NCBI RefSeq assembly: GCF_003018235.1 | Contig: NZ_CP027437.1 | DNA length: 64,000 bases | DNA from: Escherichia coli | GTDB taxonomy: Bacteria; Pseudomonadota; Gammaproteobacteria; Enterobacterales; Enterobacteriaceae | Strand: one strand, 5' to 3' | Shown: piece after piece, positions 27,141-31,478 of the stretch | Numbering within the stretch: position 1 is the stretch's first letter | Layout of the letters: the number at the start of each line of letters is the position of its first letter | Notes under the pieces: model-generated | Database searches by the model: none | What the model was told of the DNA's origin: nothing | Seen by the model: only the letters and a program-made list of their open reading frames with translations | Made by a program: the position numbers and the translations under genes

Positions 27141-28481
27141 ATGAGTTCTCAATTTACGACGCCTGTTGTTACTGAAATGCAGGTCATCCCGGTGGCGGGC
27201 CATGACAGTATGCTGATGAATCTGAGTGGTGCACACGCACCGTTCTTCACGCGTAATATTGTGATTATCAAAGATAATTCTGGTCACACCGGCGTAGGGG
27301 AAATTCCCGGCGGCGAGAAAATCCGTAAAACGCTGGAAGATGCGATTCCGCTAGTGGTGGGTAAAACGCTGGGTGAATACAAAAACGTTCTGACGCTGGT
27401 GCGTAATACATTTGCCGATCGTGATGCCGGCGGGCGCGGTTTGCAGACATTTGATTTGCGGACCACTATTCATGTGGTTACCGGTATAGAAGCGGCAATG
27501 CTGGATCTGCTGGGGCAGCATCTGGGGGTTAACGTGGCATCGCTGCTGGGCGATGGTCAACAGCGTAGCGAAGTCGAAATGCTCGGTTATCTGTTCTTCG
27601 TCGGTAATCGCAAAGCCACACCGCTTCCGTATCAAAGCCAGCCGGATGATAAATGTGACTGGTATCGCCTGCGTCACGAAGAAGCGATGACGCCGGATGC
27701 GGTGGTGCGCCTGGCGGAAGCGGCATATGAAAAATATGGCTTCAACGATTTCAAACTGAAGGGCGGTGTACTGGCCGGGGAAGAAGAAGCAGAATCTATT
27801 GTGGCACTGGCGCAACGCTTCCCACAGGCGCGTATTACCCTCGATCCTAACGGTGCCTGGTCGCTGAACGAAGCGATTAAAATTGGTAAATACCTGAAAG
27901 GTTCGCTGGCTTATGCAGAAGATCCGTGTGGTGCGGAGCAAGGTTTCTCCGGGCGTGAAGTGATGGCAGAGTTCCGTCGCGCGACTGGCCTGCCGACCGC
28001 AACCAATATGATCGCCACCGACTGGCGGCAGATGGGCCATACGCTCTCCCTGCAATCCGTTGATATCCCGCTGGCGGATCCGCATTTCTGGACGATGCAA
28101 GGTTCGGTACGTGTGGCGCAAATGTGCCATGAATTTGGCCTGACCTGGGGTTCACACTCTAACAACCACTTCGATATTTCCCTGGCGATGTTTACCCATG
28201 TAGCCGCTGCTGCACCGGGTAAAATTACTGCTATTGATACGCACTGGATCTGGCAGGAAGGCAATCAGCGTCTGACCAAAGAACCGTTTGAGATCAAAGG
28301 CGGGCTGGTACAGGTGCCGCAAAAACCAGGATTGGGCGTAGAAATCGATATGGATCAGGTGATGAAAGCCCACGAGCTGTATCAGAAACATGGGCTTGGT
28401 GCGCGTGACGATGCGATGGGAATGCAGTACCTGATTCCTGGCTGGACGTTTGATAACAAGCGCCCGTGCATGGTGCGTTAA
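27141..28481 (+). CDS. gudD: Glucarate dehydratase (enolase superfamily)
   Basis: Start placed at ATG 27141 ([18 protein letters not shown]...), 446 aa. Confidence 0.92.
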
Positions 28482-28494
28482 GACAGAAAACCAA

Positions 28495-28518
28495 AACCGG
28501 CTTCATAAGAAGTCGGTT
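28495..28518. terminator. Hairpin between convergent gudD and barA (possible bidirectional terminator)
   Basis: AACCGGCTTC-ATAA-GAAGTCGGTT stem-loop flanked by an A-tract on the plus strand (a U-tract for the minus-strand transcript). Confidence 0.4.
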
Positions 28519-28554
28519 TGAGATTACTGACGAAGTGGTTTACGGGGCCGGTTT

Positions 28555-28656
28555 TCCCCCTCGCCCTTTCAGGGAGAGGGGCGGGGTGAGGGTAATCATT
28601 CGCACTTGCGTTGGCCTGTTCCCCTCACCCTAACCCTCTCCCCGGAGGGGCGAGGG
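28555..28656. repeat. Pair of GC-rich inverted intergenic repeat units
   Basis: Unit A CCCCCTCGCCCTTTCAGGGAGAGGGGCGGGGTGAGGG (28555-28591) and unit B CCCCTCACCCTAACCCTCTCCCCGGAGGGGCGAGGG (28621-28656) are approximate reverse complements of each other, about 30 bp apart; I cannot assign them with certainty to a named repeat family. Confidence 0.5.
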
Positions 28657-28721
28657 GACTGTCTGTGCTGCTCCCAGCATTGGCATTGGACGGAACCTAT
28701 TTTGACTCGACAAGACGTCCA

Positions 28722-31478
28722 TTACCCGAGAATTTTGCTGGCTTCGCGCGCGACATTATCCATCTCGTCCAACAGTTCCAGCAGCTCCGGCTCCAAATCT
28801 TCTTCTTTAGTACCGCTACGTAGCTGTTGTTCGATCAGCTGGCAGAGATTCTTCATACGCGGCACACCGCTATAGCCGCAACTGCCATGCAGTTTATGAA
28901 TCAAATCAACCAGGCCTTCCGGGTTTTCTCCAACCAGCTGTTCCTCAACTTTGTTGCGAACTTCAGGCAGGAAATCGAGTAACATTTGCAGCATATCGCG
29001 CGCTAAATCGGTTTTTCCTGCTGCCTGGCGTAGTGCCAGTTGCCAGTCGAGGGTCGCATTCGGGTTCACCACAATTTCGTTGACTTCGGGCGTCACGACG
29101 CGAGAGGAAATACCGCTGCCAGGCTTGTAGCGCAACAGCAAATTATGCAATCGCTCTTCTTCAATCGGTTTCGCCAGATAATCGCTCATCCCTGCGCCAA
29201 GCAGCTTCTCTTTTTGCCCGGCCATTGCATGCGCCGTTACCGCGATAACCGGCGTTTGTTGCTGATGGGGGAGCTGGTGGATGAGTTCGCAGGCCCGAAT
29301 GCCGTCCATGTCCGGCATTTGAATATCCATTAAGATCAAATCGAACGGCATCTGTTTCGCCCGTTCAACCGCCTGATGCCCGCTATCGCAAAGTTCCACA
29401 TGTTGCACCATATCTTCCAGCAATGCGCCGATAAGTTTCAGGTTAGCGGGGTTGTCATCAACCGCCATGACTGTCATTGCCAGCTTACTTTCATCGGTTA
29501 CAGGCAAAAGCGTGTTTTGTTTGTGATGACAAAATTCCGTCAGGGCAGGTAACAGGCGCGTAGGTGTTAATGGTTTCAGCAGACACGCGCCGATACCATC
29601 TTGCTTAAGTTTTTCAGCATTGACTTGTGCATGGCAAGGAAGTGCCAGCATCAGAAAATCGGTCATCGATACCGCTTTCGCTAATCGCTCATGTTGCATT
29701 GTTAGCGGCTCGCGGAAGGTCACCGCAATGCCTAATAACATCATGTCGTAATGCGCGGGAGGCAGCGCGGAGAACGTTGGGCTATAAACCACTTCCAGCG
29801 GCGTTTCACTTAAAATATCCAGCGTGCATTGCGCTGCTGCGGAGTTTGGTTCGACATAGGCCAGGCGCTTGCCGGCGAGGCACTGGGTGGATGGCCCTTC
29901 GATAATAATGTTCGGATTCAGATCGAGATTAATGTGGAACCAGAAAGTTGAACCGCGATTCGGCTGGCTATGGAACGAAATATCGCCGCCCATTTCATTA
30001 ACCAGTTTTTGTGTAATCACCAGCCCCAGCCCGGTGCCACCATGACGGCGGGAAATACTGGCATCAGCCTGTCGGAAGGCCTGGAATAAGCGCGATTGAT
30101 CGCGTTCAGGAATACCAATGCCGGTATCCCGAATCTGCACTTCAATCTGCACTTTGGTATTACTCAGCGCACGTTTTTCTACCAGAATATCAATGTTGCC
30201 ATTCTCGGTGAATTTAATTGCATTCCCCACCAGGTTAGTGATGATTTGCTGTAATCGTAGTGGGTCGCCGATCACGTTATCAGGCACGTCGCTTTTAATA
30301 TTGAGCGTCAGTTCCAGCCCTTTATCGTGAGAAGAATGTGCCAGCAGGGTAACGACTTCATCCAGCGTGCTGCGTAGTGGGAATGGAATACTTTCCAGAA
30401 TCAGCTTACCGGCTTCCAGTTTCGAGAAGTCGAGAACATCATTAATAATTGCCAGCAAATTATTTGCCGAACGTTCAATCGTATTCAGGTGATCGCGCTG
30501 CGTTGGTGTTAATTCTGTTTTCAGCGTCAGGCGGGTAAAGCCAATAACACCATTCAGTGGTGTACGCAGCTCGTGTGACATATTTGCCAAAAACTCGGAT
30601 TTAATACGCGCCGCTTCCTGGGCGCGCTTTTTCGCCAGATCCAACTCAACGTTCTGAATTTCCATCTGCTCCAGCGTTTCACGCAGATCGGACGTCGCCT
30701 GGTCGATATTGTGCTGCATCTCTTCGTGATAAGCAGCCAGCGACATTGCCATCGAGTTGATACCGTTTTTCAGCATATCCAGCTCGCCGAGCATAAATCC
30801 TTCCACCCGGCTGTCGAGTTGCCCGCGACGGATGCGGTCGACGGTATTCACCATATTGCGAATCGGACCGGTTACATCGCGCATTAAGCGCCAGCCAAAA
30901 ATAAGCGCAATACCGATACAAAACAGCATCATCACGCTGGAAATAAAGATCTCTTTATATTGCTGCAAGCGAACCGATTTAAGATCCAGCTCAAGCGCAA
31001 TATATCCCAACATATTTTGACTATTTTTGGCATCGCTACTGGGCGATTCGTCGGGGGAGTAACTCTCAGAAATAATCGGTGTGCGGAGGATCATAATATC
31101 GCCGTCACGAGTGACAGTGAGCTGGCGAGGAAACGGCACGTTGCTGCCGAGCTGCATTGATGAGGGATCAAGATGAAAATTGGAGGTGACAAAGAGTCGA
31201 TTATTTTCATCATAAACCGAAATCGCGCGAACAATATCGGAATGGCGACGATGCAGTACGCTTATTAACTGACCGATAGATTCGCGATTTTGCAGGCTCA
31301 TGCCATATTCAGTAGAAACTGCAAGCGGCTCAATAATGCTGGCTCCGGCATCTTCCAGTTGACGCTGCAAGTCGTTATAGCGATGCACAACGAAAAAGAT
31401 ACTCAGCAATAAACCAATAAGGACGGTCGGTGCCAGGATCAGAATCATCATGCGTGCGCGCAGGCTGTAGTTGGTCAT
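28722..31478 (-). CDS. barA: Hybrid sensor histidine kinase BarA (tripartite HK with receiver and HPt domains)
   Basis: 918-aa ORF with two N-terminal TM segments, HAMP, HisKA (H-box SHELRTPLN), ATPase, receiver and HPt domains. Confidence 0.93.

Follow-up and report, generated by a model that had tools for sequence, protein, structure and literature searches.

REP (PU) sequences and the BIMEs are small palindromic intergenic repeats that are often located between convergent genes and in 3' UTRs. The REPs have a dedicated transposase family, RAYT; we know of no dedicated transposase family for BoxC, the repeat considered here. ERIC (IRU) and other enterobacterial MITE-like repeats are about 120 bp in length, imperfectly palindromic, dispersed and intergenic, as are the paired forms of BoxC.

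BoxC has been described under three successive names, BoxC in the 1990s, then PIT elements and then TMECO (PMC4666352). The PIT, or potential intrastrand triplex, elements (Hoyne/Maher 2000-2002) are the same as BoxC, which in the early 1990s was a 56-bp GC-rich intergenic repeat. Holder et al. 2015 (PMC4666352) gave the consensus as 5'-CCCTCNCCC-N3-6-GGGNGAGGG-N3-GGGNGAGGG[G/T/C/-]-3', counted 3,610 copies in 262 proteobacterial genomes, and recorded five MG1655 sites with two inverted units, always one of type A and one of type B. The same paper demonstrated by CD and NMR that K-12 oligonucleotides of both types, A and B, form a triplex in vitro, and reported raised variability around the elements, with inverted pairs that had mutated units or partial deletions still leaving a hairpin. 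A survey of stem-loop families also names E. coli BoxC, with 22 copies detected, and quotes a literature value of 56 bp and 32 copies (PMC2267715).

Identity of the inverted repeat

The repeat studied here lies in a 64-kb stretch of E. coli DNA (the window), between two convergent genes:

27141-28481, plus strand: gudD, with its stop codon at 28479-28481; the start is a calculated one, taking the K-12 annotation of 1,341 nt as the length of the gene
28722-31478, minus strand: barA, with its stop codon at 28722-28724; the BoxC pair is 65-165 nt downstream of this stop

A preliminary description of the window had reported two units of about 36 bp, inverted and about 30 bp apart, between gudD (ending at 28481) and barA (ending, on the minus strand, at 28722). 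Both the dimensions and the gene context were accurate, the spacer measuring 27 nt. Both arms fit the BoxC/PIT/TMECO consensus with no mismatches, and a regex scan of the window returned exactly two matches, 28558-28592 on the plus strand and 28656-28622 on the minus strand, which correspond to these units:

28558-28593, plus strand: BoxC/TMECO unit, type-B-like, CCCTCGCCC-TTTCA-GGGAGAGGG-GCG-GGGTGAGGG-T; exact to the published consensus and 35/36 identical to MG1655 TMECO no. 10
28621-28656, minus strand: BoxC/TMECO unit, type A 'mm', CCCTCGCCC-CTCCG-GGGAGAGGG-TTA-GGGTGAGGG-G; exact to the consensus and 36/36 identical to MG1655 TMECO no. 23

The two MG1655 copies are among the 23 in Table 1 of PMC4666352, where no. 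23 is of type A 'mm' and no. 10 of type B 'mm'. The single difference from no. 10 is in the second loop, which is GCG in the plus strand unit, one base off the canonical CCG, as compared with CCG, TCG or CTG in the described family. The pair combined one unit of each type, with loop 2 being TTA in the minus strand unit and the CCG-like GCG in the plus strand unit, and the order was that of the K-12 pairs. The core CCCTCNCCC-N5-GGGNGAGGG occurred twice in the 64-kb window, both times in the inverted pair, with 0.00 occurrences expected from 100 shuffles.

Based on the exact consensus and the identity to named copies, we assigned the GC-rich inverted repeat as one copy of BoxC/PIT/TMECO in the documented tandem inverted form, with a probability of at least 90%. 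The preliminary description had suggested that the units might come from a small intergenic repeat family other than REP, and had proposed comparison with the catalogued E. coli families; the suggestion was right, and the comparison matched both units to MG1655 BoxC copies. The resemblance to the family also extended to the intergenic position, the dispersed copies, the inverted A+B arrangement with a conserved spacer, and the local variability with hairpin-preserving partial deletions that has been published for these repeats. Unlike the described copies, the gudD-barA site is not among the 23 of MG1655, because K-12 has a REP segment at that place, and it is not named in the text or the accessible supplements of PMC4666352. 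It thus adds only a further site to the family. Elements of this kind, with this paired layout and this behavior, are already published and there is no new family here; what had looked like an unknown GC-rich element belongs among the textbook repeats of enterobacteria, in a known paired form, and calls for no new category.

The element was unrelated in sequence to the REPs and without their GCCGGATG/GCCTGATG core. A REP (PU) core such as GCCGGATGCGGCG...CGCCTTATCCGGCCTAC was absent from the surrounding block (28524-28704) and present in the K-12 allele of the spacer, which bore out the difference from the REP consensus that had been noted earlier. There was no sequence similarity between the pair and ERIC/IRU; unlike those repeats, a BoxC pair is assembled from two units of the triplex type, each self-complementary, and at gudD-barA there was no sign of a target-site duplication. 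No Rfam family reached its gathering score in a search at permissive thresholds, the best being plant MIR1846 (37.1 bits versus 77.5). All of these sub-threshold matches were to eukaryotic miRNA-precursor models, which we rejected as generic long hairpins. Inspection by eye showed no GTTRRRY core pair, and the element was accordingly not taken for an integron attC site. The small ORFs that overlap the element (28466-28633, plus strand, and 28630-28722, minus strand) were dismissed as frame noise from a repeat, and the pair at gudD-barA encodes nothing.

Architecture and predicted folding

A repeat search of the window delimited inverted arms at 28557-28595 and 28619-28657, each 39 nt in length, 82% complementary and separated by a gap of 23 nt, and it found that each of the two arms has its own short internal palindrome. 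Together with the sequence between and beside the units, the arms form the following:

28594-28620, no strand assigned: spacer AATCATTCGCACTTGCGTTGGCCTGTT, with a small apical palindrome CGCA/TGCG, forming the apex of the predicted hairpin
28549-28669, no strand assigned: the whole composite, which comprises the flank CGGTTTTC (asymmetric, conserved), the B unit, the spacer, the inverted A unit and the conserved end GACTGTCTGTGC

The predicted fold of the pair was one long interrupted hairpin of approximately 35 bp. Folded as plus strand RNA, positions 28540-28670 had an energy of -83.5 kcal/mol, compared to -56.2 +/- 4.1 for shuffled sequences (z = -6.68; none of 200 shuffles was as good), and the minus strand RNA folded at -72.2 kcal/mol (z = -5.51). 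The composite as single-stranded DNA gave -35 kcal/mol (z = -4.98). The preliminary description had raised a large cruciform or RNA hairpin and had called for the region to be folded as RNA; the fold was far more stable than shuffled sequence, and the hairpin and cruciform potential is real. According to these predictions the arms jointly, and each unit alone, are able to fold back in single-stranded DNA or RNA.

To place the window copy beside other pairs, the K-12 BoxC sites were re-read from NC_000913.3 and four pairs were aligned with it. Identity over 124 nt was 87% for ygfF-gcvP, 83% for alx-sstT, 82% for fepB-entC and 71% for hrpB-mrcB. The spacer of about 27 nt was conserved in three of the four K-12 pairs, that of hrpB-mrcB being shorter and divergent, and the short asymmetric flanks CGGTTTTC (left) and GACTGnCTGnGC (right) were common to the K-12 pairs in varying degree. 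The conservation of the spacer and short flanks along with the units indicated that the pair is one composite repeat of about 120 bp (28549-28669) and not two independent units. RNAalifold on the five pairs found compensatory changes at none of 33 base pairs, because the copies of the BoxC pair are nearly identical.

Alleles of the gudD-barA spacer in E. coli

Alignment to the common E. coli allele showed that the pair is part of a larger segment specific to its own allele:

28524-28704, no strand assigned: allele-specific 181-bp block, containing the BoxC pair and unique flanks (GATTACTGACGAAGTGGTTTAC, CTGCTCCCAGCATTGGCATTGGACGGAACC)

Opposite this block, the common allele, represented by K-12, had a non-homologous REP/BIME-like segment of about 171 nt with REP-type palindromes (GCCGGATAAGGCGTTAACGCCGCATCCGGC), and K-12 was without BoxC between gudD and barA. 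The K-12-type spacer was covered to at least 80% in 5,209 of 5,426 genomes (~96%), so that a REP pair occupies the same spacer in some 96% of E. coli genomes. In the K-12 allele (NC_000913.3, about 2917814-2918044; also EPI300, L001 850-1010), two REP-like palindromes faced each other in inverted orientation across an A/T-rich spacer, an arrangement that looked like a BIME. Nothing was annotated for the REP-like segment of the common allele in the RefSeq feature table.

The BoxC-containing block was identified in 189 of the 5,426 genomes (~3.5%). When the non-repeat flanks of the block were used alone as a query, the same 189 genomes were returned, once each and always at gudD-barA. An intragenomic source of the block was rejected, as its flanks were found at no other E. 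coli locus. Among barA loci from other genera, BoxC units were present downstream of barA in several, and the 181-bp block in none; in that set, only three Escherichia-labelled records (two E. coli and E. albertii) had at least 98% BarA identity.

Most of the 189 carriers resembled the window allele. Flank variants were present in 36 of them, and the three that were read (HCP5S3_I2, EC581 and strain 135) had a degenerate B unit in which AGGAGAGGA replaced GGGAGAGGG. A further 14 of the carriers had a shortened allele that retains a single small hairpin:

28563-28632, no strand assigned: the segment absent from the 70-bp-deletion allele, which GN02461 shares with 13 more genomes; the sequences on either side meet at CCCCCTC|ACCCTCTCCCC, with an imperfect CCCT microhomology

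In one carrier, CFSAN018748, 110 bp was gone between GGGGAC direct repeats, leaving one GGGGAC and the conserved right end of the element, ACTGTCTGTGC. Since this right end is retained, the CFSAN018748 allele is the product of a deletion and not a site that the element had never entered.

The same two genes are thus separated, in natural isolates, by a REP segment, a full BoxC pair, a degenerate pair, a pair with a 70-bp deletion or a nearly complete deletion. This allelic series fits the published link of these repeats with local instability. It also offers a ready-made test bed for the published, still unproven, idea that BoxC repeats promote local genome instability, and it could reveal effects on the mRNA of the neighboring regulator gene barA.

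Transcriptional context

A separate small hairpin was found just past the gudD stop codon:

28494-28519, no strand assigned: small hairpin AAACCGGCTTC-ATAA-GAAGTCGGTTT; -16.7 kcal/mol, z = -3.2

On the minus strand, this hairpin is followed by UUUUGGUUUUCU (U-tract, complement of 28480-28493). Its stem was kept in all alleles, with variation in the loop and in stem bases (CTTC-ATAA-GAAGTC in the window versus CTC-TATCTG-GAGCC in K-12). Judging by its sequence, the small hairpin probably terminates barA and would act as a weak terminator of gudD. Because its minus-strand form contains an A.C mismatch, it escaped the simple terminator scan, which covered 28300-28900 and found no promoter pattern and no terminator-like sites. 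If the small hairpin terminates barA transcripts, the BoxC pair is inside a barA 3' UTR of about 240 nt, and we consider that the pair is probably so placed, between the barA stop and the hairpin/U-tract at 28519-28480. The big hairpin persisted when the whole of this putative 3' UTR was folded. In E. coli strain E69, a second terminator-type hairpin, AACCGGCTTC-TTAT-GAAGTCGGTT, was seen right after the barA stop (L012 2403-2460). Its stem is that of the hairpin on the gudD side in the window and its loop is inverted.

The sequence after the big hairpin was GACUGUCUG on the plus strand and GAAAACCGG on the minus strand, a U-run being present on neither. Lacking a directly following U-run, the BoxC pair is not an intrinsic (Rho-independent) terminator. 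The transcription barrier proposed in the preliminary description was therefore unsupported, given the missing U-tracts, the empty terminator scan and the earlier experiments, summarized in PMC4666352, in which promoter or terminator activity was absent for these elements.

Copy number and spread

A megablast query with the 241-bp gudD-barA spacer matched 4,553 of 5,426 complete E. coli genomes, with a median of four places per genome, nearly all of them chromosomal. With the more sensitive blastn, the E. coli chromosomes listed as plasmids in PLSDB each had 12-20 places; the top three such E. coli "plasmid" records were 4.8-4.9 Mb, the size of a chromosome, and E. coli records of 0.1-1.3 Mb were matched too. 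The preliminary description had looked to two properties, further copies in the genome and conservation in orthologous intergenic regions. The first was found, the units being multi-copy in E. coli, and the second was not, since about 96% of E. coli genomes lack them between gudD and barA.

Together, the megablast searches of E. coli genomes and the phage search indicated that the element is almost absent from true plasmids and phages, with three short partial matches only among phage records. The Campylobacter phages MG065686.1 and MG065691.1 (174 kb) each had a 41-nt, 97.6% match to the A unit at two places, which was unexpected for phages of an AT-rich host.

Megaplasmids of the alphaproteobacterium Azospirillum brasilense had 13-15 places each. 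On its plasmid p2 (168773-169009, L096), a B unit, a spacer, an inverted A unit and a GGGGACTG end were located between two ABC-transporter genes. The Azospirillum units were nearly identical to those of E. coli and the spacer was not. These copies agree with the proteobacterial spread counted in PMC4666352. Plasmids of Sinorhizobium (40 records) and Rhizobium (20 records) also matched.

Origin and possible roles of the element

In the reading that we consider best, the gudD-barA BoxC pair is a passenger repeat and serves no cellular function of its own. Under this explanation the arms would fold back during replication, and the fold-back would promote misalignment between short direct repeats. 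Such misalignment could give rise to the two kinds of deletion allele, the 70-bp loss between CCCT microhomologies and the near-complete loss between GGGGAC direct repeats. Replication slippage across the hairpin is, on the evidence of these junctions, the likely deletion mechanism. A minority lineage has the 181-bp block in place of the REP/BIME-like segment of most E. coli, and in members of that lineage the element has undergone mutation as well as partial or almost complete deletion.

A passenger repeat explains one feature poorly: from one bacterial class to another the unit hardly changes, which is hard to square with neutral drift. The unit is almost unchanged from E. coli to A. brasilense, as are the A+B layout and the GGGGACTG end, which points to constraint or horizontal spread. 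We therefore allow a small chance that the B-spacer-A composite is a selected or actively spread module, interchangeable with the REP/BIME pair at the barA 3' end. If so, there would be an enzyme or protein that recognizes the unit, or a required structured element in the barA 3' UTR.

Among more specific roles, a working RNA module in the 3' UTR of barA (or gudD), acting as a block to 3'-to-5' exonucleases or as an RNase III site and replacing the REP/BIME pair, is unlikely in our estimation. It would accord with the great stability of the hairpin on both strands and in the whole-UTR fold, with the position of the pair between the barA stop and the hairpin/U-tract, with the presence of a palindromic repeat pair in the alternative allele as well, and with a secondary source that mentions transcription of the BIME and boxC repeats of E. 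coli (PMC3738161). A crude motif screen of the 250 nt downstream of barA in 61 Enterobacterales loci found a BoxC hairpin in 11 and a REP-like motif in about 22; however, 30 of the 61 had neither, and the BoxC units in other genera were in both orientations relative to barA. The lack of covariation (0/33 pairs) and the natural alleles in which the element is truncated or deleted also argue against such a module. A barrier or terminator against colliding gudD and barA transcription would make sense of a large GC-rich hairpin between convergent genes, yet it is highly improbable given the lack of a U-run on either strand, the scan with no sites, the separate small hairpin with its U-tract at 28494-28519 and the negative published tests of promoter and terminator activity cited in PMC4666352. 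A similarly faint prospect is a sequence-specific protein-binding site. The extreme conservation of the 9-nt blocks, both between copies and between bacterial classes, is an indirect hint of one, but no such protein was found in the literature covered, the position relative to promoters is inconsistent among copies, and PMC4666352 found the function of flanking genes to be unconnected with the elements. Our search for later functional work on these repeats returned nothing beyond that paper.

A non-autonomous MITE-like element that had transposed into the spacer in an ancestor of the 189 carriers would be expected to resemble the ~120-bp composite, which has inverted arms at its ends and a conserved spacer inside, is dispersed in many copies, and is present at gudD-barA in some genomes and absent in others; near-identical composites in distant Proteobacteria also fit. 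We nevertheless find such a transposition rather improbable, as there is no clean empty site: unrelated sequence stands in the alternative allele, and the sole "empty" allele keeps the right end. In addition, target-site duplications were absent at other copies, the right GGGGAC is part of the element, true plasmids and phages almost lack it, and PMC4666352 reported no linked transposase and loci mostly fixed across 56 strains. Non-B DNA formed in vivo, whether an intrastrand purine-motif triplex, a G-quadruplex or a cruciform, could also modulate local replication or recombination. The units fit the consensus for which the stable in vitro triplex was established (PMC4666352), and since they are near-identical to those of K-12, triplex folding of their G-rich strand is to be expected. 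A quadruplex pattern, G3+N1-7 x4, can also be read in each of the G-rich strands (28572-28592, GGGAGAGGGGCGGGGTGAGGG; minus strand, GGGGAGAGGGTTAGGGTGAGGGG), and instability induced by structure would be in keeping with the deletion alleles of the gudD-barA spacer. Against this, the double-stranded form gave duplex signals only, in vivo DMS footprinting gave the triplex no support and the published NMR spoke against a quadruplex (PMC4666352). Ordinary hairpin slippage, moreover, can account for the instability, and we hold an in vivo role for non-B DNA to be distinctly doubtful.

barA 3' flanks in other Enterobacterales

Two Enterobacter sp. were observed to have tandem arrays of half-BoxC units just downstream of barA. 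These arrays comprised 51 bp x 5.2 copies with 92% matches and 41 bp x 3.9 copies (L038 2415-2679 and L032 2431-2595, respectively), and this tandem half-BoxC form is not described in PMC4666352.

Outside E. coli (Citrobacter, Salmonella, Enterobacter, Klebsiella and others; L015-L063), the 3' end of gudD was at least 1.2 kb from the barA stop, versus about 230 bp in E. coli, and a reverse-strand coding-like sequence began soon after barA. The tight convergent gudD-barA junction looks specific to Escherichia, plus Siccibacter (L064).
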